A stretch of 64,000 nt of DNA from Candidatus Bathyarchaeota archaeon (GCA_963807605.1 CAWECG010000001.1:288001-352000); one strand, 5' to 3'. Shown: positions 6,091 through 63,599, counted from the stretch's first letter. Notes: a model not told the origin generated them from the letters alone. Made by a program: numbers and translations.

Positions 6091-6100
6091 GGCGCGCTAG
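6091..6100. repeat. Intergenic GCGCGCTAG palindrome copy
   Basis: ggcgcgctag; an inverted degenerate copy, gctagcgcac, lies at 6341-6350. Confidence 0.6.
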
Positions 6101-36888: not shown

Positions 36889-37100
36889 AAATAGTGCATC
36901 ATGATTCTTTTAAGTGATTTTTCGCGGAGATCGCGATTACTACCAGCAACATTGCTGAGCTCGCTCAGTCAGAGTGTCTCTAGCTTAAGACAGGCTTAAG
37001 AATTGACAAGCGCGCTCAAAACGTGCTACCGCTGAAAAGATCCTGGAGAAAGGTTTCAATAGACTGACATGTTTCATATTACACGGGAAGTGTATCTTCA

Positions 37101-42650: not shown

Positions 42651-45470
42651 ATGTCCGCTAGGACTGAACATGAGACAAGAAGAGATCTGATTGATCCTCT
42701 TCTTGAGAAGGCGGGCTGGACTCTTGAGGATAGGACAAAAGTAGTTCTAGAAGTGGATACTAAGCAGTCAGATTTCAGGGTAAGAGACTACAGGACTGTA
42801 GATGAGACCCTGAGAAACGATGCCGATAGTGCGTATGTTGACTATCTCCTTTTGGATGGCACAGGTTCGCCTATTGCAATAGTTGAGGCTAAGCGGACTT
42901 TGCGTGACCCTGTTGTAGGTCAACAACAGGCTGAGATGTATGTTGACGACATTAAGAAGCAGACAGGCAAGGATCTCTTCGTTTTCCTGACCAACGGTTA
43001 TGAGATCTGGTTCTGGAATCGACCTTATGAAGCATTGAGAATGGTGAAAGGATTTCACGGTCGGGAGGCTCTTGAGCGTATCAGGTTCCAGAACGCCGCT
43101 AAGAAGAGCTTTCTGGACGTGCCAATCAGAGGAGAAATAGTGGATAGGCCCTACCAGATTGAAGCCGTTAAACGTGTCCTTGAGGGTTTGGATAAAGGGA
43201 AAAGGAAATTTCTCATTGTGCAGGCGACGGGGACAGGCAAGACACGGGTCGCAATGGCGATCATCGACGTTCTGTTAAGGTCTAACCGGGCACAGAAGAT
43301 ATTGTTTCTCGCTGACCGGAAGGCTCTGAGAGACCAAGCCTATAATGATGGTTTCAAAGTCTTCTTCCCTGATGAATCAAAGATTCGGGTTTACTCAGGT
43401 AACGTTGATAAGAATAAGCGATTGTTCGCTTCGACAATCCAGACCTTTCAGGACTGCTATCAGGACTTCTCATCAGGAGACTTTGACGTAATCATCTCTG
43501 ATGAAGCCCACAGATCAATCTACAACAAGTGGAAAGACGTATTCACCTACTTTGACGCAATTGAGATAGGTCTGACAGCCACGCCTTCAGAACTTATTGA
43601 AAAGAATACCTACCGCTTCTTCGAATGTGAAGAGGGCAATCCCACAGCACATTACGCATACGAGCAAGCTGTCGAGAAGCAATGGCTTTCTCCATTCGAC
43701 ATTTACGAAGCGAGTACACATTTCCAGATCAAAGGCATCAAACCTGAAGATGTCCCATCCGGAGAATTAAGGAAACTTGCTGAGAAAGGAATAGAACAAA
43801 CCGACATCGACTTCGCAGGTACCGACATCGAAAAGAAAGTCGTTGTCATAGGCACCAATGAAGCAATAGTAAAGGAATTTATGGAGATCTGCCTCACTGA
43901 CGAAACTGGCACGCTGCCCGCTAAAACAATCTTCTTTGCAGTCTCAAAGAAACATGCAAAACGTCTCTGGGAAGCATTCAACAGGCTATACCCAGAATAC
44001 AAGGGTGAGCTGGCAAGATATATCACATCTGAAGACCAGAGGGCCCAAGAGCTACTCAAGAAGTTCAAACAAGAAAGTATGCCGAGAATTGCTATCTCAG
44101 TTGATATGCTTGATACTGGAGTGGACATTCCAGAAGTCTGCAACCTAGCGTTCGTTAAACCTGTCTTCTCGAAGATCAAGTTTTGGCAGATGATAGGTAG
44201 AGGCACAAGAGCCGATGCAATCTGTAAGCATAAAGAGTGGCTACCTAACAGGAGAAAGGAAGAGTTTCTTATCTTCGATTTCTGGAAAGTCTTTGACTAT
44301 TTTGACATGCATCCTAGCGGAAGAGAGTATAAGCCTGCCGAGGCTGTGACGTCAAAGATCTTCCTGTTACGACTGCGAGAGCTTGAACACTTCCAGAAAC
44401 GCAAAAACAAAAAGAAAGCTGAACAAGTCAAGGAAAAGATTCGAGCAGACATCAATGAATTGCCAGAAGACTCGGTTGCGGTTAGAGAGGTTTGGAGGGA
44501 TGTTGAGAAAGCTCGGTCACCGGAATTTTGGGCTAGAGTAGGTCTCGAACCTATCGAGTTTCTGCGAAAGCGAATCGCACCTCTAATGAAGTATAAGGTA
44601 GGTGTTGAACCTAACCAAGCGTCTTTTGCACTCAAAACTGAGCAGCTTAGTGTTGCAATTCTTGAGAGGAATAAGGCTGAACTTGAACGGTTGAAAGAGG
44701 ACATAGGCGAGATCATGGACTACTTACCCTTCACAATAAAGGAGGTCAAGATAAAAGAGGAGCTAATCAACAATGTTCAAGGGCCATCTTTCTGGAGGAC
44801 ATTAACATACGAAGATGCCCAGATGTTACTTCAAGAATTGACTCCGTTAATGAGGTACAAGAGGAGCGAGCCACGTATACCAATAATTCTTGACATAGGC
44901 GATATAATACAGGAAAGAGAATACCTCGACTATGGGCCAATTACAGCACCAAGGTCTATGCTTGCCAAGACCTACATGGAGAAAGTGGAGAAAAGGATTA
45001 GAGAACTGGCTGAACGGCACCCCACCATACGAAAAATCATTAGAAACGAGAAGCTGACTGAGAAAGATCTCTTGGAATTGGAGAAGACCCTGAACAGCCC
45101 AGAGCTATACGTGACTGAGGAGGTCTTTCACAAGATCTACAAGCAACATGACGGGACACTTGTCCAGTTCATCAAGAAGATACTTGGTCTCTATGAGTTT
45201 CCTGACCCTAGAAAGAAGATAGAGGAGGCGTTCAAGACCTTCATGATCGAGAAGAACTATCTAAATGCAGATCAAGTCAATTTCCTAAGAACAATACAGA
45301 CAGTTTTCATGGAGAAGCACCACATAGAATATGGCGATCTTTTCGAGCCCCCATTCACAAACTTTGGGCCAAACGCTCCTATACCATTGCTACAGAAGGA
45401 AGATGTTGATACAGTCCTTACCATTTGTAATGGTTTAGAACCGGAGGTTTTCGTGCATGTTGGATCCTGA
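42651..45470 (+). CDS. hsdR: Type I restriction endonuclease R subunit (EcoEI-like)
   Basis: DYLL...VEAKR nuclease motif, ATGTGKT, DEAHRS, GLTATP, QMIGRGTR. Confidence 0.95.
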   Translation: MSARTEHETRRDLIDPLLEKAGWTLEDRTKVVLEVDTKQSDFRVRDYRTVDETLRNDADSAYVDYLLLDGTGSPIAIVEAKRTLRDPVVGQQQAEMYVDDIKKQTGKDLFVFLTNGYEIWFWNRPYEALRMVKGFHGREALERIRFQNAAKKSFLDVPIRGEIVDRPYQIEAVKRVLEGLDKGKRKFLIVQATGTGKTRVAMAIIDVLLRSNRAQKILFLADRKALRDQAYNDGFKVFFPDESKIRVYSGNVDKNKRLFASTIQTFQDCYQDFSSGDFDVIISDEAHRSIYNKWKDVFTYFDAIEIGLTATPSELIEKNTYRFFECEEGNPTAHYAYEQAVEKQWLSPFDIYEASTHFQIKGIKPEDVPSGELRKLAEKGIEQTDIDFAGTDIEKKVVVIGTNEAIVKEFMEICLTDETGTLPAKTIFFAVSKKHAKRLWEAFNRLYPEYKGELARYITSEDQRAQELLKKFKQESMPRIAISVDMLDTGVDIPEVCNLAFVKPVFSKIKFWQMIGRGTRADAICKHKEWLPNRRKEEFLIFDFWKVFDYFDMHPSGREYKPAEAVTSKIFLLRLRELEHFQKRKNKKKAEQVKEKIRADINELPEDSVAVREVWRDVEKARSPEFWARVGLEPIEFLRKRIAPLMKYKVGVEPNQASFALKTEQLSVAILERNKAELERLKEDIGEIMDYLPFTIKEVKIKEELINNVQGPSFWRTLTYEDAQMLLQELTPLMRYKRSEPRIPIILDIGDIIQEREYLDYGPITAPRSMLAKTYMEKVEKRIRELAERHPTIRKIIRNEKLTEKDLLELEKTLNSPELYVTEEVFHKIYKQHDGTLVQFIKKILGLYEFPDPRKKIEEAFKTFMIEKNYLNADQVNFLRTIQTVFMEKHHIEYGDLFEPPFTNFGPNAPIPLLQKEDVDTVLTICNGLEPEVFVHVGS

Positions 45471-46938
45471 GCTGAAATCGAAGATCAGCAAGTTATGGGA
45501 TGCTTTCTGGGCAGGCGGCCTGAGCAATCCATTGACAGCTATCGAACAGATCTCATATCTAATCTTCATGAAGAGGCTCGACGACCTCGATGTACACCAC
45601 AAGATGGCGGCTCAAGCAAGAAGTCAAGATTACAAGTCTATCTTCCAAGGCAGAGAGAATTGCAGGTGGTCACATTGGAAGAACTTCAATGCCGAAACGA
45701 TGTTCAAACATGTTAACGACGTAGTGTTTCCATTCATCAAGAACCTGCACAATGGGTCTGACGCCTTGTATTCAGAGTACATGAAGGATGCAACCTTCAT
45801 GATTCCAAAAGCCTCACTACTCCAAGAGGCAGTCTCAATAATCGATGAGATCGAGATCGGCGAGAAACCTGACATCCAAGGAGACATCTACGAGCATCTT
45901 CTGGGAGAGCTAAAGACCGCAGGAAAAAATGGGCAATTCAGAACTCCCAGACACATCATTAGAATGATGGTTGAGCTTGTTGACCCAGACATTGGCGACA
46001 AGATATGTGATCCCGCCTGCGGGACAGGTGGCTTCCTAGTTGCTGCCTACCAGCACATTCTAAAGAAGTATACGACGCCAGACATGTTGAAGATAGACGA
46101 TGACGGAACCCCTCACGGGTTAATAGCCGATAAGATCGTCAAAAAGGAACACTGGGATCTCCTCTGGAAAGAAACATTCTATGGCTTTGACTTTGAGATC
46201 ACAATGATCCGAATAACACTCATGAATATGATTCTTCACGGCATAATGCAACCAAACATCAAACAGATGGACACTCTGTCCAAAAGGTTCGAGCAGACAC
46301 CGATCTACGATGTAGTGTTTGCTAATCCCCCATTTGCAGGGTACATAGACAAGTCAGACATCAACGACAATTTCAAGCTGGACACTACAAAGACGGAATT
46401 GCTCTTTCTCGAACTATTCTATAATCTCCTGAATGTTGGCGGAAAGGCCGCAGTAATTGTGCCTAACGGCGTACTATTCGGCTCCTCGAACGCTCATGTA
46501 AAAGGAAGACGTTTGATTCTTGAGAATTGTGACCTCCAAGCCGTTATCTCAATGCCTTCAGGAGTGTTCCAGCCGTATGCCGGTGTAAGTACAGCCGTGC
46601 TTGTCTTTGTGAAGGGGGGCAAGACTGAGAAGGTCTGGTTCTACGAGATGAAAGCGGACGGATATAGTCTTGACCAGAAGCGGGATTTCATTGACGGTAA
46701 AGGAGACATCCCAGATATACTCAAGAAATTCAAGGCAGGAAGAACGGAATCAGACCAGAGCATACTGGTGCCATTTGATGGAATAAAGAAGAATGACTAC
46801 AACCTCTCGATCTCAAGGTACAAGCAAGTTGATCACCCATCAGTCGAATATGAAGAGCCCGAAGTCCTGATCGAGAAAATCTCACAACTAGAAGAAGAGA
46901 TCACCAAGGAATTACAGGAATTGAAAGCGATGATTTGA
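45457..46938 (+). CDS. hsdM: Type I R-M N6-adenine methyltransferase
   Basis: GQFRTPRHI, DPACGTGGFL, NPPF. Confidence 0.95.
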   Translation: MLDPELKSKISKLWDAFWAGGLSNPLTAIEQISYLIFMKRLDDLDVHHKMAAQARSQDYKSIFQGRENCRWSHWKNFNAETMFKHVNDVVFPFIKNLHNGSDALYSEYMKDATFMIPKASLLQEAVSIIDEIEIGEKPDIQGDIYEHLLGELKTAGKNGQFRTPRHIIRMMVELVDPDIGDKICDPACGTGGFLVAAYQHILKKYTTPDMLKIDDDGTPHGLIADKIVKKEHWDLLWKETFYGFDFEITMIRITLMNMILHGIMQPNIKQMDTLSKRFEQTPIYDVVFANPPFAGYIDKSDINDNFKLDTTKTELLFLELFYNLLNVGGKAAVIVPNGVLFGSSNAHVKGRRLILENCDLQAVISMPSGVFQPYAGVSTAVLVFVKGGKTEKVWFYEMKADGYSLDQKRDFIDGKGDIPDILKKFKAGRTESDQSILVPFDGIKKNDYNLSISRYKQVDHPSVEYEEPEVLIEKISQLEEEITKELQELKAMI

Positions 46939-48216
46939 ATGTGGAAGGGTCTTCCTGAAGACTGGCAATTAACTGAACTCGGGAAGGTGTGCAAGCTCCC
47001 TGATCGACAGGTGCGGCCCAGTGATTTCTCGAAATATGATTGCTATGTTGGATTAGAGGATATAGAAGGTAGTACTGGCAGAATTATCAAATATCAGAAA
47101 GTCGGCGAAAAGAATCTGAAGAGTTCGAAGTTCTTTTTCGACGAGTCCTGTATTTTGTATGGCAAACTCAGGCCTTATCTAAACAAAGTTGCCCTCCCAC
47201 AGTATGTGGGGATATGTAGTACAGACATACTCCCCCTCCGACCAATTACGGAAGTTGCTTTGAGAGAATACCTCTATTTTTTTCTAAAAACGCCCCACTT
47301 CGTTAAGATAGCCACTGGCAAATCGACAGGAGCCAATCTGCCACGGATCGCACCTGAATCGCTTTTGAGCATCGCCATACCGCTCCCCCCCATCGAAACC
47401 CAACGAAAGATATGCCAGATCCTATTGAGAGCAGACCGCCTCAGACAAAGCAGAGAAGAAACGAATCAGCTCACAAGCAAGGTCATCCAGTCAGTCTTCC
47501 TGAAAATGTTTGGAGACCCTGCAGAGAACCCATTCAAGTATCCGGTTTTCAGTTTAGGAAGTCTGGCAAATATGAGCCGTTATGGCCCACGGTTCTACAA
47601 TCAGCCATATTCTGAAGTCGGTATTCCGATCCTGAGAACGACAGATATTACTGAAAATGGAGAATTGTCGCTAGACAAAGCTCCAAAACTGAAAGTCTCG
47701 CCTGATGATCTCCAGAAATATCGTCTACATAGTGGTGATGTTGTAATCTCAAGAAGTGGTAGCCTTGGCAGATGTGCAGTTTATGATATCGGTGACGTTG
47801 ACTGTATTCCCGGTGCGTTTCTCCTTCATTTTCGATTTGGCGACAAGGTTCTCCCCGAATACGTTCAATATTTCATACTTTCCGAGAGTATCCAGAAGAG
47901 AATTCAGAGGATGGGAAAAGTCGTTGCTCAACCTAACGTAAACATGAAAGAATTAGGCAAACTAGAGGTTCCTGTGCCTTCTATACCGAATCAACGAAGA
48001 TTCGTTGAGGCAAAGTCGAAGTATCATCAGCTTAGACAAAGGCAGAATGAATCCTTTGAGGAAATAAGCGAGTTTTTCCAATCTTTGATGCATAAAGCCT
48101 TCAGAGGAGAACTTCGAATAGGAACGAACGACAGTAAGGATATTCGGATTTCTAAACCTGTGAATGTTGAGACAGAGGTTCAGTCCACGCTTGCAAACTA
48201 CATGAGCGACTCCTAG
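46939..48216 (+). CDS. hsdS: Type I R-M specificity subunit
   Basis: LPEDW, LYGKLRPYLNK, PLPPIETQ, FLKMFGDP, LMHKAFRGEL; two TRDs. Confidence 0.93.
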   Translation: MWKGLPEDWQLTELGKVCKLPDRQVRPSDFSKYDCYVGLEDIEGSTGRIIKYQKVGEKNLKSSKFFFDESCILYGKLRPYLNKVALPQYVGICSTDILPLRPITEVALREYLYFFLKTPHFVKIATGKSTGANLPRIAPESLLSIAIPLPPIETQRKICQILLRADRLRQSREETNQLTSKVIQSVFLKMFGDPAENPFKYPVFSLGSLANMSRYGPRFYNQPYSEVGIPILRTTDITENGELSLDKAPKLKVSPDDLQKYRLHSGDVVISRSGSLGRCAVYDIGDVDCIPGAFLLHFRFGDKVLPEYVQYFILSESIQKRIQRMGKVVAQPNVNMKELGKLEVPVPSIPNQRRFVEAKSKYHQLRQRQNESFEEISEFFQSLMHKAFRGELRIGTNDSKDIRISKPVNVETEVQSTLANYMSDS

Positions 48217-53195: not shown

Positions 53196-54332
53196 TCAGG
53201 TTGAAGAGATGGTTCTCTCAGCGTTTTCTTCTACGGGCGCTAGTCTGGCGCCTACACGGTCCTCGAGAGCGTCCAATAGCTTCTCGAATGCAGGCTTATT
53301 CTTTATGATTAACTCAATCATCTCGTCAGCATTCTGCAACTGCGGACCCAAGGAGCCTCCGGATACTATGTTCAGGTATTTCTCAGCGATGCGGTACTGC
53401 TTGAGCGCCTTCGCCTTGTCCATGTAGAACTTGTCATACCCATTCGGATCCGTTGTGTGGCCCATCCAATGCTCAACATACTCAAGATCTAATCCGTCGC
53501 CTTTACCCTGCAAGTGCAAAAGAGTCCGGGCGACGTCTCTGAACTCGTGAAGACCGTAACCGTACCTGTTGCCTTTTGAGCCCCCTCCAGTCTTGATGTA
53601 CTTGAGCTTCTCGAGAGTGCGCTTGTGTCTGGCCCAGACTCCATCCTCGGTAATAGGTCCATGTTTGCTCTTGATGATGGGTTCGCCCTTCTTTGGATAG
53701 CCACGGATCCGCTCGAAGTATTCACGCCATGCATCCAGAGCATCATGACCAATGAAGGTGTGGTACTGAACCTTGTTCAGATTCTTCTTTCGACCTGGAA
53801 ACTCCATCCGGAAAGGCTCATCAACTCCCTTGGTCTGGAGATGCTCAGCCAAGGCCCCACCATATCTCTCGTTGAAGTACAGAAACCTCGCAGTGTCCAG
53901 AATCCCCATCCAATAGGTCAAATAGACAGCTTTGAAATCCAGGTCTGCAGCATTCACTAGCTTTCTGATAATCTCAGGCGTGAGGTTGCCCTGCACACAC
54001 TCTTTCGTCGCCTTGATGACAGGTTTGACGTCAGCCGGCAAAGAAGCCCTCGAAGACTTGAAAAACATTACAACAACAGAGTAGTAGGTTCGCTTGCTGT
54101 TGTAGGTTCCCTCACGTAATCCAATAGCCTGCTGCAGATGATCAAGCAGTAGAAACTGATCTTTCTTCTCAGCATCAGCCTGGAACTCTACAAGCTGGGA
54201 GTAACTCAGGCCCTTGAACCGGTCAACACTCTGCAGACTCTCCCAAAACCACTTCAAAATATGGAAACTATTGCTAGACTGATTGTACCTGGACAGAAAC
54301 TTGACTACCGCAGCATCCTCTCTGAGATCCAA
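53196..54332 (-). CDS. Tyrosine recombinase/integrase
   Basis: YHTFIG, HEFRD (HxxR), WMGH, NGYDK catalytic Tyr; box I atypical. Confidence 0.82.
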   Translation of the reverse strand: MDLREDAAVVKFLSRYNQSSNSFHILKWFWESLQSVDRFKGLSYSQLVEFQADAEKKDQFLLLDHLQQAIGLREGTYNSKRTYYSVVVMFFKSSRASLPADVKPVIKATKECVQGNLTPEIIRKLVNAADLDFKAVYLTYWMGILDTARFLYFNERYGGALAEHLQTKGVDEPFRMEFPGRKKNLNKVQYHTFIGHDALDAWREYFERIRGYPKKGEPIIKSKHGPITEDGVWARHKRTLEKLKYIKTGGGSKGNRYGYGLHEFRDVARTLLHLQGKGDGLDLEYVEHWMGHTTDPNGYDKFYMDKAKALKQYRIAEKYLNIVSGGSLGPQLQNADEMIELIIKNKPAFEKLLDALEDRVGARLAPVEENAERTISST

Positions 54333-54391: not shown

Positions 54392-55468
54392 TCATTGTGA
54401 ACTTGACATTGCCAGCTTTGTTATGATCTTGCCTACTGTTTCTGTACCGGCTTTCCCACCCAGCTCGATTGGCAGCTCATCAGGCTTTGAACTCATGAGG
54501 TATTTTTCGACTGATCGTTCAATAGATTCGGCTGCGTCTTTGAGACGTTCGTCTTCATGATAGGTGCCTAGAAAATCAAGCATTAGGCCTGCCGAGGATA
54601 TTTGCCCCAACGGGTTTGCTTTATTGGTTCCAGCAATGTCGTATGCGCAGCCGTGTGTGGGCTCGAAATATCCGAGACGTTTTTCAGTATTGAAGTTGGT
54701 TGCTGCCGTCATTCCTAATCCTCCGGCTATCTGTCCTGCCAGGTCACTCAGCAGATCCGCGATAAGGTTTTCTGCCACTATAACATCGAATTTTTGTGGT
54801 TCCTTCACGAGTAATGCACATACGGCGTCTGCATACAGATCTCTTGCTTTGATCTCAGGGTAGTCTTTACTCACAGTTCTGAATATGTCTCTGAACATTC
54901 CATGTGTCTTACGGAAGATGTTTGCTTTGTGAGCAAGGACAACATCGCCCTTGCCTCCTCTGCTTAGCCTCTTCTCAGCCAGTTCAAATGAGAAGCGCGA
55001 GACTCTCTCACATGCCTTCTCAGTGTAGACTCCTACAGTCGTCCAGACGCCTGGGATAACCTCGTTTTCAAGGGAACGGTAAAGACCCTCGGTGTTCTCT
55101 CTGATGACCACCATGTCTATATCAGGTCTGAGAGCTGGAGGGGTTATCGATGGATATGATTTGGCCGGCCGAACATTGGCATACAAATCGAGATTGAATC
55201 TCAGCGCTTGAACCAAGTCTCGAGTTGTTTCCCCAACGGGTCCTTTGAGGCCTGCATCAGACTTCAAGAACGTTTCCAGAGATTTCTTGGGTACTGGTTC
55301 TCCAGTTTCTTCCTTGACTTTGTCCCCCATGGGTGCGTCAACGTATTCAAGTCTGAACTTGAATCTCCCCTCAACTGATTTCAGTACCCTCTTAGCCTCT
55401 CTCATAATGTCGGGGCCGATTCCGTCGCCGTCAATCTCAGCTATTACGTAAGTATTCTTCAATTTCAT
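54392..55468 (-). CDS. Isocitrate/isopropylmalate dehydrogenase family protein
   Basis: GDGIGP, LDLYANVRP, IRENTEGLY, HKAN, SDLAGQIAGGLG, FEPTHG. Confidence 0.92.
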   Translation of the reverse strand: MKLKNTYVIAEIDGDGIGPDIMREAKRVLKSVEGRFKFRLEYVDAPMGDKVKEETGEPVPKKSLETFLKSDAGLKGPVGETTRDLVQALRFNLDLYANVRPAKSYPSITPPALRPDIDMVVIRENTEGLYRSLENEVIPGVWTTVGVYTEKACERVSRFSFELAEKRLSRGGKGDVVLAHKANIFRKTHGMFRDIFRTVSKDYPEIKARDLYADAVCALLVKEPQKFDVIVAENLIADLLSDLAGQIAGGLGMTAATNFNTEKRLGYFEPTHGCAYDIAGTNKANPLGQISSAGLMLDFLGTYHEDERLKDAAESIERSVEKYLMSSKPDELPIELGGKAGTETVGKIITKLAMSSSQ

Positions 55469-55580
55469 CAACCTCGATTCCAAAGATGTTCTAGAGCGCT
55501 ATCATGTGATAAAAATCTGCGTAGTTTTCCTTCTTACACTACATGGTAAGGAATAAGCTTGTAGTCTCCGAATAGCGCGC

Positions 55581-56706
55581 TAGCCTCTTGCAATATTCTT
55601 GGGCTTAACATGAAGATGTATACGTGTTTTTGATCATAAGATCGATGAGCTTTACACCCGCTCATGCCGTTTCTGGTGAAAAAGGAGTGAGCGAGTGTAA
55701 GGCTCTGTATGATCTGTTTCAGGCTTTGGATTTAACGTTTGTAGAACAAGTCTTGGAAAGAAGCTATGGGAGAAGAAGCAGGGTCGGCAGACCCCATAGA
55801 AATTTACTTGGAATGTTCAAAGCAGAGCTCATCAAACGGCTAAGACGCATAGAAAGCTACGAGGAACTATACCGACTTCTATGGAGTGACGGTGAACTCT
55901 GCAGACTCTGCGACATCAAGGAGACCGAGAACCCGTATCACCCATCAATACTTCTGAGGTTTCGACGTAGAATAGGCCCTCAAGGATTTCACCGCCTCAT
56001 GAACCGTCTGATCAAACAGCTCGACCATACAGGTGTCTTGGACAGTGAAACCCTAGCTTTGGATGCGACGTTCATCAAAGCTTACAGTCGAAGAGATCCT
56101 CACAATACCCAGTGTGGATTATCTGATTCTGAAGCCAGATTACGAAAACAAGGTAGAAACGTGATCTTAGGCTACGGTATACACCTAGCTGTAGACACCG
56201 CCAGCGAGATGCCGGTGGCAGTCACAGTGGAGCCTGCAAACGTCAACGAAAAGAAGATCGCATCCCACCTACTCCATAAAACCTTGAAGTACAAACATAG
56301 GTGGAAGAGCGTGACTGCAGACTCACAATACTCCAGCGAATCCTTCAGGGATAAGGCAAGATCCATAAGTGTTGAGCCTGTCATCCCCTACCCCAAGAAC
56401 CAGATGAAAGGCAAAAGAGTTCTACGTGTTGACAGAAGATTCCACACCCACGGACCTGCAAGGCTGAGACGTCTCTACCGAAAACGATCCTCTGTTGAGA
56501 GAACCGTCTCACGATTGAAGACACACTTCGGACTGTGCCAACTTAGAACCCGAGGATTAAGAAACGTCCTGTCACATGTAGTCCTATGCTTGATCGCAAT
56601 GTTGACGGCTGCTCTATCAGCGATCAAACAAGGATACACCCACAGAATGCGGTCACCAGTCCAACTCATGAAATTGACAGGACTAAAGTAATATTGCAAG
56701 AGGCTG
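55581..56706 (+). mobile_element. Complete 1126-bp IS (IS5/IS1182-like DDE) with 17-bp TIRs and 6-bp GCGCGC target duplication
   Basis: Left TAGCCTCTTGCAATATT, right AATATTGCAAGAGGCTG (16/17 match); GCGCGC at 55575-55580 and 56707-56712. Confidence 0.9.
55645..56691 (+). CDS. DDE transposase
   Basis: GRP...LLRFRRR N-terminus, LDAT, GYGIHL, ADSQY, YRKRSSVER; stop overlaps the right TIR. Confidence 0.92.
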   Translation: MSFTPAHAVSGEKGVSECKALYDLFQALDLTFVEQVLERSYGRRSRVGRPHRNLLGMFKAELIKRLRRIESYEELYRLLWSDGELCRLCDIKETENPYHPSILLRFRRRIGPQGFHRLMNRLIKQLDHTGVLDSETLALDATFIKAYSRRDPHNTQCGLSDSEARLRKQGRNVILGYGIHLAVDTASEMPVAVTVEPANVNEKKIASHLLHKTLKYKHRWKSVTADSQYSSESFRDKARSISVEPVIPYPKNQMKGKRVLRVDRRFHTHGPARLRRLYRKRSSVERTVSRLKTHFGLCQLRTRGLRNVLSHVVLCLIAMLTAALSAIKQGYTHRMRSPVQLMKLTGLK

Positions 56707-56736
56707 GCGCGCCATGCAATTTGGGGGGCGTTTAAG

Positions 56737-56943
56737 TTACTGGTTGACTAGTTGGAATGCGCCGGTGGGACAAACATTGACACATGCGCCACCAAAGTCG
56801 CATACTTCAGGGTGAGCTATAACAGATTTCCGGCCCTTGCCTTCAATCTCTCGGAGCTCCATCACTTTAGGATCCGTTGGACACACGCTGAAGCATGCGC
56901 CGCAACCTATACATACATCTTCGTCAACGAACGGCCGCATCAT
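56737..56943 (-). CDS. Dicluster ferredoxin
   Basis: CIGCGACFSVCP and CDFGGACVNVCP. Confidence 0.88.
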   Translation of the reverse strand: MMRPFVDEDVCIGCGACFSVCPTDPKVMELREIEGKGRKSVIAHPEVCDFGGACVNVCPTGAFQLVNQ

Positions 56944-57193
56944 ATTGCACCGTAGCTGGTGCCATAACATACCTCCTTCTATTAAGGATTCATTCCAGTA
57001 AATAAAGAGATGAGAATAATCCAGAAGATCGTGGTCGGATACTGCCGATCTCTCAGGAGGAATTTTCCACTCAAGTATAATGCTTATTCCTTTTGTCCGC
57101 CCAAGTCGATATCACATCAATTGGAACGCGCCCAGCAAGAATTTAGGCCACGTTATCTTACATGACATTTGGACGTCTTCAAGGGGATCCTGC

Positions 57194-58909
57194 ATGAAGA
57201 ATATTGAGGTTGCTAAGATCCTGAAGGAGATCTCTATCATTCTAGATATGGATAATGTTCCATTCAAGCCTAGATCTTACGAGAAAGCTGCCCGGTCGAT
57301 AGAGGCTCAGGAAGAGGATGTTGAGGAAATATACGCGAAAGGCGGAGTAAAAGCCCTCATGGAAATTCCCGGCGTAGGCCAAAGTATTGCTGAGAAGATA
57401 GAGGAGCTCATTCAGACTGGAAAGCTGCGATACTATGAAGAATTGAAAAGAAGGATCCCGGTTGATTTGGAAAGCCTCTCAAAGATAGAAGGCCTCGGAC
57501 CAAAGACGATCAAGGTTCTCTGGGAAAAACTGCAGATCCAAAACATTGATGATTTGGAAAAAGCTGCCCGTGCTCACAAAATCGCTAAATTACCGGGGTT
57601 TAAGGAGAAAACCGAGCAGAATATACTGAAAGGAATCGAATTTGCAAAAAGGAGTAGTGGCAGGCATATTCTCGGATATGCCCTCCCGTTAATTCGCACA
57701 ATAGAAGATCGATTGAAGTCGCTTCCTGACGTAGAGAGCGTTTCGGTAGCAGGCTCAGTGCGACGGATGAAAGAGACTGTGGGAGACGTCGACTTCCTTG
57801 TCATATCAGCCAAGCCTGGAAAGGTGATGGATTATTTCGTTTCAATGCCCGAGGTCGTCGATATCATAGGAAAAGGAGACACTAAATCATCTATCAGACT
57901 GAAGACAGGCATGGACGCTGATATTCGAGTATTACCCGAGGAGAGTTTCGGTGCAGCGCTGCAATATTTCACGGGCAGCAAAGACCACAACATCGCACTA
58001 AGACGAATTGCCCAAGAAGAAGGGATGAAACTGAGTGAATACGGCCTTTTCAAGAACGACAAACAGGTAGCGGGGCGAACTGAGGAGGAGGTTTATCGGA
58101 AATGCGGGCTTGCCTGGATTCCCCCAGAGTTGAGAGAGAATACTGGTGAGATAGAAGCTGCCATCAAGAACAGATTACCCAGATTGATCAATTATGCGGA
58201 TTTGAAGGGCGATCTTCAGGTTAATTCGACATGGACCGATGGCGCTCACTCGATAAGAGAGATGGCTGAAGAAGCGAAGAGGATAGGCATGGAGTATATC
58301 GCCATCACCGACCATGCCAAAACACTTGCTATGACTAGAGGTTTGGATGAGAAACGGTTGATGGAACAAGGGGAGGAGATAGACAAGGTAAACGAAGAGC
58401 TTACGGGAATAAAGATTCTGAAAAGCATAGAACTGAATATTCTGAAAGATGGCAGTGTTGATATCGCCGATGATGTCTTGGAGAAATTAGATGTGGTCGG
58501 GGCGGCGGTTCATTCTTATTTCAACTTAAGCCGGGAAGAGATGACAAAGAGGTTTTTGAGAACTATTGAAAATCCTAATGTCGACATCATCTTTCATCCC
58601 ACGGCTCGACAGATTCAGAGGAGAGATGCGATTCAGCTGGACATTGAAAGAGTCATCGAGGCGTCGAAAGATCAGGGGACAATTCTTGATATAGACTCAT
58701 TTCCCGATAGGTTGGATCTGAAGGATGAGTACATAAGAAAAGGAGTGCAAGCTGGGGTTAAGTTGGATATAAGTTCTGATTCACATAGCAAATCCCACTT
58801 TCGGTTCTTGGAGCTGGGTATAGCTCAGGCTAGAAGAGGATGGGCGACTGCGAAGGATATTGTTAACACTCGTGGAGTGGATGAATTCACAAAACTCTTA
58901 AAATCCTGA
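57194..58909 (+). CDS. polX: Family X DNA polymerase with PHP domain
   Basis: IPGVG HhH, AGSVRR, GDVD, QYFTGSKDHN, IPPELRE; PHP motifs TDH and SDSH. Confidence 0.95.
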   Translation: MKNIEVAKILKEISIILDMDNVPFKPRSYEKAARSIEAQEEDVEEIYAKGGVKALMEIPGVGQSIAEKIEELIQTGKLRYYEELKRRIPVDLESLSKIEGLGPKTIKVLWEKLQIQNIDDLEKAARAHKIAKLPGFKEKTEQNILKGIEFAKRSSGRHILGYALPLIRTIEDRLKSLPDVESVSVAGSVRRMKETVGDVDFLVISAKPGKVMDYFVSMPEVVDIIGKGDTKSSIRLKTGMDADIRVLPEESFGAALQYFTGSKDHNIALRRIAQEEGMKLSEYGLFKNDKQVAGRTEEEVYRKCGLAWIPPELRENTGEIEAAIKNRLPRLINYADLKGDLQVNSTWTDGAHSIREMAEEAKRIGMEYIAITDHAKTLAMTRGLDEKRLMEQGEEIDKVNEELTGIKILKSIELNILKDGSVDIADDVLEKLDVVGAAVHSYFNLSREEMTKRFLRTIENPNVDIIFHPTARQIQRRDAIQLDIERVIEASKDQGTILDIDSFPDRLDLKDEYIRKGVQAGVKLDISSDSHSKSHFRFLELGIAQARRGWATAKDIVNTRGVDEFTKLLKS

Positions 58910-59066
58910 CAGCGCGCGCTATTCAAATTTCGTCTGCCAATGAGCTAGAAAGAACTGTTAAAGCACCGTCTGACGGCTGCTCCCTCAGAAGAGGAGGCAT
59001 GATAAACTAATGTATCACAGAAAATCTTGATAAATTCGCGTCTTGATATCTAATGTGTAAAGGCGT

Positions 59067-59897
59067 ATGGTTTCTAGAACTGTTTTAATTGCTGCGGTCA
59101 TTGTTGTACTGTTAGCGGTTGGCGGTTGCATGTACATTCTGAAATCTTTGACACCCGCTCCCGTGTCGACCCCAGCTACAGGAGAAAGCTCCGTATCGAC
59201 ATCTACGCCTGCTTCACCAACAGAATATAACATTACCACAGAAGACGTGACCTATTTTGCCAATACTACTGGCTATCTTGCAAAGCCAGCTGTATCCGGT
59301 AATTATCCCGGTGTGATAATGATTCACGAGTGGTGGGGACTTACAGAGAATATCAAGACGAAGGCTAGGCAACTTGCGTCGCAGGGCTACACTGTCTTAG
59401 CAGTTGACCTCTTCAATGGCGAGATTGCTACAACATCTGAGAGAGCGATGCAGCTTGTCTCTTCTCTCGATCAAAACAAGGCTCTGGAGAACATGAGATC
59501 GGCCATCGTGTATCTGAGAACCAGTGAAAATATCAGCAAGGTAGCCTCATTGGGTTGGTGCTTTGGTGGCGGACAGTCGCTACAGCTCGCTTTAAGCGGT
59601 GAAAGACTTGATGCTACAGTCATTTACTATGGGCAACCAGTTACTGATGAGTCGAAGTTGTCCTCCATAAATTGGCCTGTACTCGGCATTTTTGGCGATA
59701 AAGATATCACTATACCAGTCAGCAAGGTGAAGGAATTCAGTTCTATCTTAGATAAACTTGGAATCGAGAATGAAATCTATATTTATCCAGGTGTCGGCCA
59801 TGCTTTTGCAATCCCTTCTAATCCCAACTATGCTCCGAAAGAGGCTGCGGACGCGTGGGAGAGGACGTTGGTATTCCTCAACAAGTACCTCAAATAG
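59067..59897 (+). CDS. Dienelactone hydrolase family protein, membrane-anchored
   Basis: IHEWWGL, GWCFGG, GDKD, GHAF; N-terminal TM. Confidence 0.92.
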   Translation: MVSRTVLIAAVIVVLLAVGGCMYILKSLTPAPVSTPATGESSVSTSTPASPTEYNITTEDVTYFANTTGYLAKPAVSGNYPGVIMIHEWWGLTENIKTKARQLASQGYTVLAVDLFNGEIATTSERAMQLVSSLDQNKALENMRSAIVYLRTSENISKVASLGWCFGGGQSLQLALSGERLDATVIYYGQPVTDESKLSSINWPVLGIFGDKDITIPVSKVKEFSSILDKLGIENEIYIYPGVGHAFAIPSNPNYAPKEAADAWERTLVFLNKYLK

Positions 59898-60221
59898 CCT
59901 CTTTCTGAAGCAAACGTGAACTGGTCTATGTGATAGTTCATTCTCTCAACGGTTTTGTTGAAGCAGAGGCTAACCTTTAAGGAACGAGTAATAGCGTGTT
60001 AAGAATTCGATTGACTGTGACTTCGCCTAGCGCGCTATGCTGCGACACGCCAATAGCAAAGACTACGCGGACGTTGCATAATGCAGAGTGTCTTAGGTGA
60101 GAGCAGTAGTCGTGGCGATCCGTGTCCATCAACGACCGTTTAAATATGATTGCGCATCGTAATGGTCCGTAAGCTCCCAGAATTAAGGGACGCATCACCC
60201 CACAGCTGGGTTCAGAATCAC

Positions 60222-61421
60222 ATGGATTTGCTCTTAGATATCGCTTCATTCCTGATATATGCTATAGGCTCGATCCTGCTGGCCGCATCGATCTTCTACT
60301 TGATTACGGTGTGGAATGTAAGAAGACCCAAGCTGGAGTATACTTTCTTTCCAAGAGTGAGTTTGATGGCTTATGCTTGGCAGTCAGGGAACGTCATTGA
60401 AAGAAAAATCAACAACTTCCTTGAACAGGACTATCCACGAGACAGGTTTGAAGTCATAATATATGACAATGACTCGACTGATGAGACTAAGGACATTTGT
60501 CTCAAATATGAAAATTTGGGATTGATTAAGTACTATAGGTCGCTGAGAGCTTACGATAGGAAAGCCCCAGTTCTAGATCAAGCGATTGAAGTTGCCACGG
60601 GAGAGATAATAGCATTAACGGATCCGGATGGCGTGTGTGAGAGAGACTGGGTAAAGAAGATAGTTCAACCGTTCAAGGACCCTAAGGTTGGGGGTGTCGC
60701 CGGAATCACGCATTGCGGTAACTATTACGTGAATTTGTTCACGAAGCTGCGGGCGATAGAGGATGAATGGTGGTACAACATATCAGTTCTCGGAAAGAGT
60801 GGGAAGGTGAGGATTAGCAGTTTTGAACCGTTGTGTGGGGCTAACTACGCTTTAAGGAGAGCCGCTTGGGAGAGTGTGGGGAGAACCCATGGAAAAAGCC
60901 TGGTAGAAGACTATGAGATGACGTTGAGACTTTACGGAAAAGGTTGGAAGATGGCATGTGCCGATGCTAATGTTTGGCAGGAAGAGGTTGACGATGTGGG
61001 CGAGTACATAAGACAGAGAAGGAGATGGTATCAGTCCCCTATTCAGAAAATAGTTGAGGGCAAAGGGAAACTCGATAAGACGTTAGGGGCGCTTCCAATC
61101 TCGATGCAGGCGACAGCCTTTCTATCATTACTCTACTTAGTGATAGTATGTGGGTACCAGGCTATTCGTGATGGACTGGGGTTCTTCAGCCTTATCTTTG
61201 CCATGCCTCTCTTGCTCACGTACTTTGCTCTCGCACTTGGACTGATTAAAGTCGGCAAGGCCAGTTTGCTAAGGTATGTACCTCTTTTTTTGGCATTTGA
61301 TAGTGCATTGCAATTGATCATTTTCGCAGAGACAAAACTCAGATTCGGAGAAGAGCGACACTGGGTTCAGCTGGCCAAGGGAGAGTACTATCACTCGGGC
61401 GCCGCGATGAGAACGGACTAA
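60222..61421 (+). CDS. Family 2 glycosyltransferase, processive type
   Basis: DNDSTD, TDPD, VED, QRRRW; flanking TM helices. Confidence 0.9.
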   Translation: MDLLLDIASFLIYAIGSILLAASIFYLITVWNVRRPKLEYTFFPRVSLMAYAWQSGNVIERKINNFLEQDYPRDRFEVIIYDNDSTDETKDICLKYENLGLIKYYRSLRAYDRKAPVLDQAIEVATGEIIALTDPDGVCERDWVKKIVQPFKDPKVGGVAGITHCGNYYVNLFTKLRAIEDEWWYNISVLGKSGKVRISSFEPLCGANYALRRAAWESVGRTHGKSLVEDYEMTLRLYGKGWKMACADANVWQEEVDDVGEYIRQRRRWYQSPIQKIVEGKGKLDKTLGALPISMQATAFLSLLYLVIVCGYQAIRDGLGFFSLIFAMPLLLTYFALALGLIKVGKASLLRYVPLFLAFDSALQLIIFAETKLRFGEERHWVQLAKGEYYHSGAAMRTD

Positions 61422-61553
61422 CATCATCAAGCGCACGATGTCAGACCGATGTCATGACCGAATCTAGGCTTTAGTTCAACAATATCCTTGACCGCAATCA
61501 TAAGCTTGACACGGAAAAAAGGAAAAGGGATACTTCGCGCGCGCTAGCTCGTG

Positions 61554-62219
61554 CTAGTCTACCCATGTGGTAGCCTCTGTAACCTTCGGGCGCTCGATTG
61601 GAGGAGGGGTTGCGCTTGCATAGCCTATAAGACACCCGTCCAAAGCGAATTCCCCATACGGAATACTCAGTAAAGCACAAAACTGTCTATCTTCTGCCAT
61701 TTGTGCTGTCACTGAGAACAATCGGAATCCAAGACCTAGCGCGGTTGCCTTCAGCCACATGTTCTGCAGACAGTGTGCAAGAGACTGGAGTTCTACCGCT
61801 GGGATCCCCTTCCGCTCAGCAACTATGACATAGTACGGAGCCCTGCCAATATCGGGGATACCATGCTGACTCATCATTTCCAGTGTTCGTGCGAAAGCTC
61901 GCCCATGTTGTTGCAGGAAAGGATTCTGCTTCATTTGTCTACCAAATTGCTCACTTAGAATTGCTACTCTGCGCTTGATGACTTCGCTCAGCTGTTTTGT
62001 TACCTGACTATCACGCGGGACCACAACGAATCGGCGGTAGTCTTTTCCAGATACAGCCAATCCCGCAAACGGTGCTAGCTGACCAGCTCGAATAATCTGC
62101 TCGATGAGTGTCCTCGGCGGAATGTCGCGTTTGAACTCCCTAATTGTACGTCTTGCCTCAAGAATGTCGTCAAGTGCCTCATTGTGCTCCTTACTGGTAA
62201 CCGAAGCCATGAGTATCAT
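61554..62219 (-). CDS. Nitroreductase family protein
   Basis: RRTIREF, AGQLAP, QNMWLKATALGLG, IGY. Confidence 0.88.
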   Translation of the reverse strand: MILMASVTSKEHNEALDDILEARRTIREFKRDIPPRTLIEQIIRAGQLAPFAGLAVSGKDYRRFVVVPRDSQVTKQLSEVIKRRVAILSEQFGRQMKQNPFLQQHGRAFARTLEMMSQHGIPDIGRAPYYVIVAERKGIPAVELQSLAHCLQNMWLKATALGLGFRLFSVTAQMAEDRQFCALLSIPYGEFALDGCLIGYASATPPPIERPKVTEATTWVD

Positions 62220-62334
62220 CCTCTAACCCTTACAGTCAGCAGAATAGCGCGTGCTAGTTGAAAAGTTTACCCAACATCAATCACTGTCGGATCTCTTGGT
62301 GCGCGCGCTACAAAGAACCGAGCTTTCAGTCGTT

Positions 62335-62931
62335 TCATAACTGAATATTGCTTGGAGCTGTGCGTTTGTGAGATTGGTTGTAGGCAATCTTCCGCCATCG
62401 CTTCTGCCAGCTCTTCCAACCGGTTTTCACAAGCTGCTCTCGAACCTTAGGGTCCTCGCTAACCCATTGAAGCAACGCCATAAACCTATTTCTTCCACTC
62501 TCTGGATCCAGCACCTTGGCAGGAACTCCCGTCTCCACACACCATTTGACGTAGCTTCTCTCGACCATTTCTTGAGGCTCTCCAGTCACCTCTACTTCTA
62601 CCAGGTTGTAGCCATTCTCATTCAAGTAGGCTCGAACTGCTGATAAAACGTACCCCGAGCAGACTTTGAACCGTGTGTATTTGTCAGCTCTCATCACCTC
62701 GATCATCTTGCGGACAATCTCAACAGCTTTCTCCAGGTACAGCTTTCTCTCGAATAATGGAGGCTGGAAGAATGTCACTGGAATCCTCCTCGCCATATAC
62801 CGTCCAGATGACAGTTTCAAGCCGCCTACAACAACGCCAAGAAGCAGATCTCCCCAGCCGCTGTCATCAATCACTATGTCGTCTGCTGTTCTTCGAAATC
62901 TATCCAAAGTAGTCGTCTTCAGTGCATCCAA
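62335..62931 (-). CDS. Hypothetical protein, possible RNase H-like fold
   Basis: IVIDDSGWGDLLLGVVVG resembles the RNase HII-type first strand; LVKTGW. Confidence 0.5.
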   Translation of the reverse strand: MDALKTTTLDRFRRTADDIVIDDSGWGDLLLGVVVGGLKLSSGRYMARRIPVTFFQPPLFERKLYLEKAVEIVRKMIEVMRADKYTRFKVCSGYVLSAVRAYLNENGYNLVEVEVTGEPQEMVERSYVKWCVETGVPAKVLDPESGRNRFMALLQWVSEDPKVREQLVKTGWKSWQKRWRKIAYNQSHKRTAPSNIQL

Positions 62932-63152
62932 CCAACCTCAGGCTTCGTAGCTTTTCTCGTTGAGGTTGAAACCGAAGATCCTGATTAAAAAAGTGTAAGC
63001 ATACTTTGCCTATTATGCATTGTTTCCTTGGGATTCCAGCTACAGACCAACGCGCGCTAGAGGTACTTCATGTTCTCTTTCAGGAATAGTTTGTCGGCTC
63101 TGTTCGGTTTGTAGCTGTTCGATGAGGTTGTTCGGCATCGGCGGATGTCTAT

Positions 63153-63599
63153 TCAGAGCATCCTGTATCGTGGACCCCAATACAGATAGCTGGCCGCCAT
63201 TACAAGTGCTGTAATAGCGATGATTGGAAAAACCATGGACCATGTCATCCTATGCTCTGGTTTTGCTAATACAAGTATCACCGTCATAATAGATATGGTA
63301 ACGGCGGCTACGATAAGCATTCTAGTAACGAAACTTATCATATGCGCCTTCGGGTTTGTCGAGCGCTGCCCCGCAAACATGGCTAGAGTGAGGACTAGAA
63401 TTACTGCGCCCACGAAGGCAATGCTGTTTCCTGTGGGCGTGATGTAGATGTTTGTTCCCTGAAAAGTGTGATAGTACGTGAGGCTTGAGTTAGCGGGAAT
63501 CATAGGAGTAGAGCCAAAATCGAGAGTTCGAATGTACAACCCGACAAGAATCAAAACACATCCAAGAATTAGGAGTGACGCAACAATTCGTTTGCTCAT
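63153..63599 (-). CDS. Four-TM hypothetical membrane protein
   Basis: Four hydrophobic segments; ATGA overlap with the upstream RHH gene. Confidence 0.6.
   Translation of the reverse strand: MSKRIVASLLILGCVLILVGLYIRTLDFGSTPMIPANSSLTYYHTFQGTNIYITPTGNSIAFVGAVILVLTLAMFAGQRSTNPKAHMISFVTRMLIVAAVTISIMTVILVLAKPEHRMTWSMVFPIIAITALVMAASYLYWGPRYRML

Follow-up and report, generated by a model that had tools for sequence, protein, structure and literature searches.

Alternating GC runs at gene borders, rearrangement joints and transposon targets in a Candidatus Bathyarchaeota genome

The window analysed here is a stretch of 64,000 nucleotides from Candidatus Bathyarchaeota archaeon (GCA_963807605.1 CAWECG010000001.1:288001-352000), equal to C1:288001-352000 of a five-contig, 2.65-Mb assembly (G000). 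Between 54.4 and 63.6 kb of the window, genes of unrelated function are separated by a short, self-complementary motif built on a run, that is, an alternating GC stretch of at least 6 nt. The genes and their borders are given below, with the units between runs numbered as modules, together with one insertion sequence (IS) and the open reading frame (ORF) next to the stretch. G001, named in two entries, is a relative of the same genus whose core genes are 71-77% identical in nucleotide sequence.

53196-54332, minus strand: neighbouring ORF of 378 amino acids (aa), at best that of a divergent tyrosine-recombinase-like protein (PHROG phrog_1, E = 1.9e-6, residues 196-331)
54392-55483, minus strand: Module 1, isocitrate/isopropylmalate dehydrogenase gene (PF00180, E = 9e-79)
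55573-55583: joint motif TA-GCGCGC-TA, the left flank of the IS; the left target duplication, 55577-55580, is its last four GC bases
55581-56706, plus strand: IS5-family IS, "family A", with the transposase at 55624-56691 (PF01609 and DUF772)
56707-56712: the split joint motif's right half, with the right target duplication at 56707-56710
56737-56970, minus strand: Module 2, ferredoxin of 77 aa, 2x[4Fe-4S]
57080-58909, plus strand: Module 2, PolX with a PHP domain, the true start probably near codon 36
58911-58921: joint motif A-(GC)4-TA, two bases past the PolX stop codon
59067-59897, plus strand: Module 3, dienelactone hydrolase family gene (PF01738, E = 2e-48)
60028-60037: joint motif TA-(GC)3-TA
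60150-61421, plus strand: Module 4, family-2 glycosyltransferase gene (PF13641, PF00535)
61536-61547: joint motif, a CG run of 9 nt and then TAG, with a degenerate twin over the nitroreductase stop codon
61554-62219, minus strand: Module 5, nitroreductase family gene (PF00881, E = 3e-18, full domain)
62245-62257: degenerate motif copy, with one C-to-T change within the run
62299-62311: joint motif (GC)4-TA; homology to G001 begins 1-2 nt beyond it
62310-63049, minus strand: Module 6, a 198-aa ORF (62335-62931) with its flanks, function unassigned
63050-63060: joint motif A-CGCGCGC-TAG; homology to G001 stops at its first base
63153-63599, minus strand: Module 7, a 148-aa ORF with weak membrane-protein family hits only

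All seven gene gaps in the stretch contain a run, as against one of 25 gaps in 6.4-37.8 kb (Fisher p = 2.4e-6); between 37.8 and 54.4 kb none of 13 gaps does. The original prediction, which had placed the motif at boundaries of unrelated genes in mixed orientation, is borne out by these seven gaps, and the motif is not equally common in conserved intergenic DNA, the single gap in 25 being that of the block syntenic with G001. The predicted positions 55573, 58910, 60027, 61536, 62299 and 63050 are exact and 62245 has one mismatch. Neither of two weaker copies proposed at 57126 and 61430 contains a (GC)3 run, and the run at 56707 had been overlooked.

Counted with overlaps, GCGCGC occurs 14 times in the window, compared with 6.4 +/- 2.5 in 100 dinucleotide-preserving shuffles, none of which reached 14. 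These occurrences collapse to 11 distinct runs, of which ten are outside ORFs and the one at 126 is within an ORF, in agreement with the earlier statement that GCGCGC is mostly intergenic and lies once in coding sequence; "outside ORFs" rests here and below on crude ORF calls. Over the whole genome 458 of 640 runs (72%) fall in the approximately 18% of DNA outside ORFs, ORFs covering about 82%, which is an approximately elevenfold enrichment. Run density is very uneven, from 0 to 22 per 20 kb, and runs are scarce in the 20 nt 5' of start codons. The consensus is an even-length, G-first run with A on its left and T on its right flank and a weaker outer T and A. Even-length, G-first runs predominate, yet both phases occur, and runs are 6-15 nt long. 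The two flanking bases, A and T, are independent of each other (both present in 222 runs, 224 expected), and no conserved sequence was seen beyond +/-2 nt of the run. The intact motif AGCGCGCGCT has 106 copies in the genome, its letters in reverse order have 5, and its single-mismatch variants have 0-11 each. No fixed spacing and no MITE (miniature inverted-repeat transposable element) structure was found between neighbouring runs, only a general short-range excess. The sites are, as had been noted, unlike attC or dif, being perfect palindromes of 8-12 bp without conserved flanks. An Rfam scan of the window gave no match, and a literature search for GCGCGC in archaeal intergenic DNA returned nothing relevant.

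Comparison with G001 places the runs where homology ends. The part of the window from 6.4 to 37.8 kb, a 31-kb block, is collinear with G001 contigs at 71-77% nucleotide identity; the part from 40 to 64 kb, including a type I restriction system, is non-collinear. Two further runs lie at or within the block.

6092-6097: run at the left border of the syntenic block, in a gap where G001 synteny breaks
37010-37015: lone run within the syntenic block, in a gap where G001 synteny breaks

The genes flanking the run at 37010 have other neighbours in G001, where the 37.1-37.8 kb gene has a run on its opposite side. Module 6 (740 bp, 62310-63049) is 95% identical to a segment of G001 contig C365, far above the level of the core genes, about 74% (71-77%), which argues for recent exchange. 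Its homology to G001 is lost within 2 bases of the motif on both sides, and the G001 homologue is flanked by unrelated DNA and no motif. The alignment of relatives suggested in the original prediction therefore yielded homology and synteny breaks that coincide with the motif. In G001 a repeat of approximately 100 bp abuts the 198-aa module (locus L067, C365 4640-4755); four or five copies occur in G000 (e.g. C1:418403-418505), and it may be a MITE.

The units of the stretch differ from each other in their distribution among relatives, and such homologues as exist lie on different contigs. Within the family the homologues of Module 1 and of the glycosyltransferase sit on different contigs, those of the latter (Module 4) being about 70% identical and located elsewhere. 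Module 3 has no DNA-level match in 20 relatives, and for Module 7 no protein family is matched at E <= 0.001. Proteins of Asgard metagenome-assembled genomes (MAGs; Jord-, Frey- and Atabeyarchaeia) share 72-75% identity with PolX, and those of many bacteria of the candidate phyla radiation (CPR) 57-60%. Because of this closeness to Asgard proteins, and because it was not found in the 9 other genomes that with G000 make up the family sample, the PolX module was evidently acquired horizontally. The nearest match of GatB, from the syntenic block, is in a Bathyarchaeia MAG (64% over a partial match). In CP070659.1, a complete genome titled Bathyarchaeota, 7 runs, mostly TA-flanked, lie in 21.7 kb around polX. 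On these matches the organism most likely belongs to Bathyarchaeia. The genes of the stretch occur in both orientations, each retaining 80-150 nt of upstream DNA. No GC runs surround the complete type I restriction-modification system at 42651-48216 (HsdR, HsdM, HsdS), which belongs to the window's non-syntenic part.

Within the genome, the motif also marks the ends of duplicated and deleted DNA. Repeat ends, those of the IS5-like families A and B described below excluded, lie within 15 nt of a run in 43 of 408 cases, compared with 3.4% of random intergenic positions. A run is present at 31 of 180 borders of low-copy duplications, in 30 cases at one copy only. In 10 of these cases the partner border without a motif falls within an ORF, which identifies the motif-flanked copy as a captured fragment; captured fragments frequently start with CG or GCGC. 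Three collinear paralogue pairs show deletions, of 62 nt, about 250 nt and 9.8 kb, and in all three a GC run replaces the missing DNA, the other copy being run-free at both borders. Runs thus appear de novo at some joints, and exchange between pre-existing sites is not sufficient to account for the deletions and captured fragments. As a small indel within otherwise continuous alignments a run was found in one case only. Gene shuffling at the motif, as originally proposed, is right in substance, homology and synteny breakpoints falling on it; the cassette system of integron or pdif kind that was proposed alongside is unsupported.

The motif is in addition a target of transposons. Family A has seven copies in the genome, and in six of them both ends show a direct duplication of GCGC (or ACGC). 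Its imperfect terminal inverted repeats are approximately 17 bp long, the copy of this stretch is inserted at the centre of a GC run, and removal of the IS leaves a restored run of 8-10 nt. The copy at 55581-56706 has the DDE_Tnp_1 transposase, inverted repeats and 4-bp duplication of IS5. A second IS5-like family (B), its transposase 42% identical to that of A, is flanked by GC runs in the same way, and the two families together have runs at 21 of 28 ends. Four further abundant IS families of the genome have no contact with the motif, and the four Y1_Tnp matches belong to IS200/IS605-type repeats whose ends lack it. Three other IS families (16, 10 and 9 copies), two of them with IS200/IS605-type Y1 transposases nearby, crowd together at C4:480000-660000 in a nearly run-free region, so IS density and motif density are separate features.

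A third user was traced through a repeated 8-mer beside runs, which belongs to a conserved, RNA-like element of approximately 180 nt. It has five copies in this genome and relatives in several families of the class.

C4:3290-3470: copy of the approximately 180-nt element
C3:1001437-1001616: copy of the approximately 180-nt element
C1:251599-251776: copy of the approximately 180-nt element
C4:74548-74723, minus strand: copy of the approximately 180-nt element
C3, near 445.7-445.9 kb: copy of the approximately 180-nt element
L093 (contig C10 of genome G002): full IS110-like element

The element ends exactly at a GC run, and three of the G000 copies share an AT-rich, promoter-like stretch upstream. 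In genomes G002 and G197 a DEDD_Tnp_IS110/Transposase_20 gene is located upstream of it (G002 recombinase: PF01548, E = 5e-20; PF02371, E = 5e-25). The IS110-like element is seated between TAGCG-CG and CG-CGCTA, with the core dinucleotide CG on both sides. The left-target-plus-core and the right-end-plus-core sequences recur in two stretches of the putative RNA, and in one RNA variant the core is altered in both stretches as well as in the flanking DNA. The approximately 180-nt element is therefore a candidate IS1111-type bridge RNA. Its predicted fold shows almost no covariation, the sequences being too alike (z-score -1.3), and no Rfam family matches the RNA-like loci. No intact IS110-family transposase was found in G000, only a relic interrupted by an IS. 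Six genomes of family f22 (G074, G089, G122, G126, G145 and G186) have amplified the mirror palindrome TCGCGCGCGA (13-26 copies) and not AGCGCGCGCT. In another f22 genome, G151, an IS110-like RNA loop carries UUCGCGCG, matching TCGCGCGCGA; G151 itself has the AGCGCGCGCT form, 9 copies versus 1.

The ORF at 53196-54332, called an integrase in the original prediction, falls below Pfam Phage_integrase and keeps a weak PHROG integrase match. No match was obtained for it in Pfam, NCBIfam or PDB sequences. A pattern HxxR...GH...Y can be seen by eye, and a single-sequence AlphaFold2 model (mean predicted confidence, pLDDT, 44) was too poor for a structure search. The proposed tie between the motif and a tyrosine recombinase does not hold, since 640 runs stand against five Phage_integrase genes in the genome, near which run density (1.0-2.9 per 10 kb) is not raised over the genome mean of 2.4. 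The adjacent integrase-like gene appears to have no part in the motif or the joints. The sole Pfam-supported integrase of the window (PF00589, E = 4e-9) lies at 58-1005 and holds the in-ORF run at 126; the periplasmic-binding-protein gene that follows it has at least four homologous copies in G001.

Across 201 genomes of the class, sampled for motif counts and candidate genes, AGCGCGCGCT is sporadic, with 106 copies in G000, 119 in G001 and 0-3 in most. Three genomes of another family have 131, 94 and 65 copies, the 94 being those of G094, a genome in one contig, and the motif is absent from G005 and G011, close relatives in the same family as G000. Its amplification in independent assemblies, one of a single contig, means that it is not an assembly artefact. 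The IS5-like families A and B were rejected as the source of the motif, as they were not found in many motif-rich genomes, G094 included. Of the alternative that the motif reflects GCGCGC-targeting IS elements, the targeting itself therefore stands, with IS elements as users of the motif and not as its source.

Other candidate makers of the joints fared similarly. The genome has a Ku gene with a 293-aa LigD-polymerase-like neighbour of the archaeo-eukaryotic primase (AEP) type at C1:590767-592249. Ku/LigD non-homologous end joining was set aside as Ku is found in none of the 9 other family genomes, though six are motif-rich, and in 15 of 22 genomes of family f2, which lack the motif. PolX was found in no other sampled family member and is common in the motif-poor family f22. 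A 259-aa PriS paralogue (C3:316908-317684) is single-copy, vertically inherited and present in the motif-free G005 and G011. Prim-Pol (PF09250) gave no match in the G000 genome.

With slightly better than even confidence, the stretch is taken to be a mosaic of seven single-gene modules, acquired or rearranged independently, in an accessory part of the chromosome. On balance it is also somewhat favoured that a motif occurring genome-wide joins these modules, namely a self-complementary, alternating GC run of 6-10 nt that is laid down or re-used at end joining. From the form of the joints we infer a mechanism of tail annealing. Free DNA ends would bear GC tails and so be able to pair with one another whichever way they face, which would account for the variable length, the two phases, the independent A and T flanks and the mixed gene orientation. 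Existing joints would then become safe landing sites for at least three IS families and places of recurrent later breaks and rejoining. Break repair by archaeal PriSL reportedly couples terminal transfer to microhomology annealing (PMC12019639; PMC3333859). The extra nucleotides at deletion and capture junctions, and the short GC microhomology at fragment ends, resemble filler DNA and microhomology-mediated end joining; known fillers, however, vary from junction to junction, whereas this motif recurs hundreds of times and in several lineages. A more specific proposal, possible but tentative, is that a horizontally spreading end-joining system of Bathyarchaeia adds self-complementary A(GC)n tails, possibly RNA-copied, by which any two ends are sealed. 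If true, genes would be captured, deleted and shuffled by way of A(GC)n tailing, and each joint would keep the same palindromic scar, later a target for transposons.

Several observations weigh against a run laid down at end joining. Runs are found at just 3 of 32 deletion-like junctions and at 17% of duplication borders, so the motif marks one joining route among several. The polarity of deletion versus insertion was read from paralogues, with no outgroup, and genes were delimited by crude ORF calls. No tested candidate enzyme tracks the motif across the 201 genomes, and reverse transcriptase RVT_1 (PF00078) has no match in the G000 genome. At one orthologous gene end G000 and G001 each have a run, but the DNA past it differs, which points to the re-use of old joints as well. 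Each module of the stretch is a complete gene with its upstream region; random break repair would need strong selection to give whole-gene modules, and exchange at pre-existing sites fits them better.

The last two points are among those that suit a rather unlikely alternative, in which the run is a pre-existing intergenic palindrome like the sequences called REP (repetitive extragenic palindromic), and breaks from IS insertion and excision rejoin there by microhomology with nothing written de novo. The palindrome would serve the host, in protein binding or structure, or be a selfish repeat, and its copies would multiply via target-site duplication. Such a site agrees with the precise insertion of three IS families into the run, with the GCGC duplication made by family A, with the position of runs mostly outside ORFs and rarely in the 20 nt before start codons, and with captured fragments that start with CG or GCGC, as microhomology joining would have them. 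REP sequences and the mosaic elements built from them (BIMEs) are typically 20-40 bp imperfect palindromes that form a stem-loop and have an associated REP-associated tyrosine transposase (RAYT). The present motif shares with them a short palindrome, hundreds of mostly intergenic copies and insertion by several unrelated IS families; it differs in being 8-12 bp, of variable length and without a stem-loop or GTAG/CGTC head. The Y1 transposases of G000 are parts of IS200/IS605 elements with ends off the motif, with no RAYT-type association, and the motif clusters at homology breakpoints and in accessory DNA and is newly formed at deletions. In bacteria, IS elements are known to target REP sequences (Tobes and Pareja 2006, PMC1525189); the IS110-family ISPpu9 does so too and also has RNA modules that occur alone (PMC12288879), just as the IS110-family element here has an RNA-like module that also stands alone. 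Against a pre-existing palindrome stand the three collinear deletions sealed by a run that the other copy lacks and the many motif-rich genomes, G094 among them, in which families A and B were not found. The excess of the intact motif (106) over its single-mismatch variants (0-11 each), with its absence from G005 and G011, makes a conserved host function unlikely. Another highly iterated palindrome, HIP1 (GCGATCGC) of cyanobacteria, is likewise a GC-rich palindrome of approximately 8 bp, far above chance in some lineages and absent in others. To our knowledge HIP1 has no known function, and it is of fixed length, common within genes and unreported at rearrangement junctions or as an IS target.

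Three further explanations invoke a dedicated enzyme. Telomerase adds a constant short repeat at broken ends, as in de novo telomere addition, and an analogous polymerase copying a short template in a partner RNA, encoded by a primase-like gene with the RNA at its end, would give repeats resembling the motif. This is considered improbable; the repeats here are internal joints and not chromosome ends, and RVT_1 is lacking as noted. A candidate for such a gene, a 299-aa PriS-like one at C3:72237-73133 (fragment at C1:381158-381331), is located in the 20 kb of the genome where runs are densest. It is sporadic and weakly enriched among motif-rich genomes (6 of about 21, versus 6 of about 180 others), and its last 100 nt, which contain a GCGCG stretch, are conserved in G000, G001 and G144, in G144 extending beyond the stop codon of the called frame. 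In G000 and G001, however, the stretch is in frame and encodes a basic tail, with 4 of 11 differing codons synonymous, and in G144 a +1 shift carries on a similar peptide. Copying predicts TACGCGC-type joints, which are a minority (30 versus 106 in G000, 7 versus 119 in G001), and G144 shows no amplification of the palindrome expected from its own version (2 copies versus 1 for a control). Hits outside G000, G001, G144 and G103 are mostly fragments with stop codons, no noncoding DNA beside the gene is conserved between G000 and G001, and the only RNA found with motif-matching loops is that of the IS110 family, where matching is expected. In that family itself a recombinase with its bridge RNA could recombine pairs of motifs, excising and re-inserting circles as an RNA-guided analogue of the integron, which is held very improbable. 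In the IS1111 group one end of the element has the RNA, in whose loops target and donor are matched (Durrant et al. 2024, PMC11208160). The IS110-like element here has the same DEDD and Transposase_20 recombinase, a putative RNA in the right end, target-core and donor-core repeats and a CG core. The position of the RNA in G002 and G197 agrees with that group, bridge recombinases are capable of insertion, excision and inversion (PMC11208160), and a palindromic motif permits either orientation. This explains only the element's choice of site and not the origin of the motif. G000 has only the interrupted relic, the RNA was not found in G001 with its 119 motif copies and is present in motif-poor genomes, and motif-flanked fragments from motif-free sources, like deletion fillers, go unexplained. 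Most doubtful of all is an array of integron or pdif kind in which the adjacent tyrosine recombinase swaps cassettes at the palindrome. Integrons have an adjacent IntI, attC sites that are imperfect inverted repeats of about 55-140 bp, and mostly promoterless, co-oriented cassettes, and pdif modules (XerC/D) a 28-bp dif-like site with two 11-bp arms and a 6-bp spacer. The recurring site between unrelated genes, present at every gene border of the stretch, the mobility of single genes and the weak integrase likeness of the neighbour recall such arrays. Unlike them, those of G000 have no dedicated recombinase, attC-like fold or 11-6-11 dif architecture; the genes keep their upstream regions and both orientations, and sites occur genome-wide and are sometimes new. 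The excess of 640 copies over five unenriched Phage_integrase genes, the varying run length and phase, the de novo runs at deletions, and the lack of any run in the gene gaps of the 17 kb on the far side of the ORF at 53196-54332 all tell against it.

The system is a genome-wide joint motif, sometimes newly made, re-used later and exploited by three transposon families. Even on a conservative reading, we know of no earlier archaeal REP-like IS target common to DDE and bridge-RNA transposons. The motif is a practical marker for bounding accessory modules in Bathyarchaeia genomes. If the run is written at joints, it would be a readable record of the sites at which an archaeal genome has been cut and pasted, and would point to an undescribed, Ku-independent end-joining route that captures whole genes from other lineages, such as the Asgard-like PolX and the 95%-identical module.

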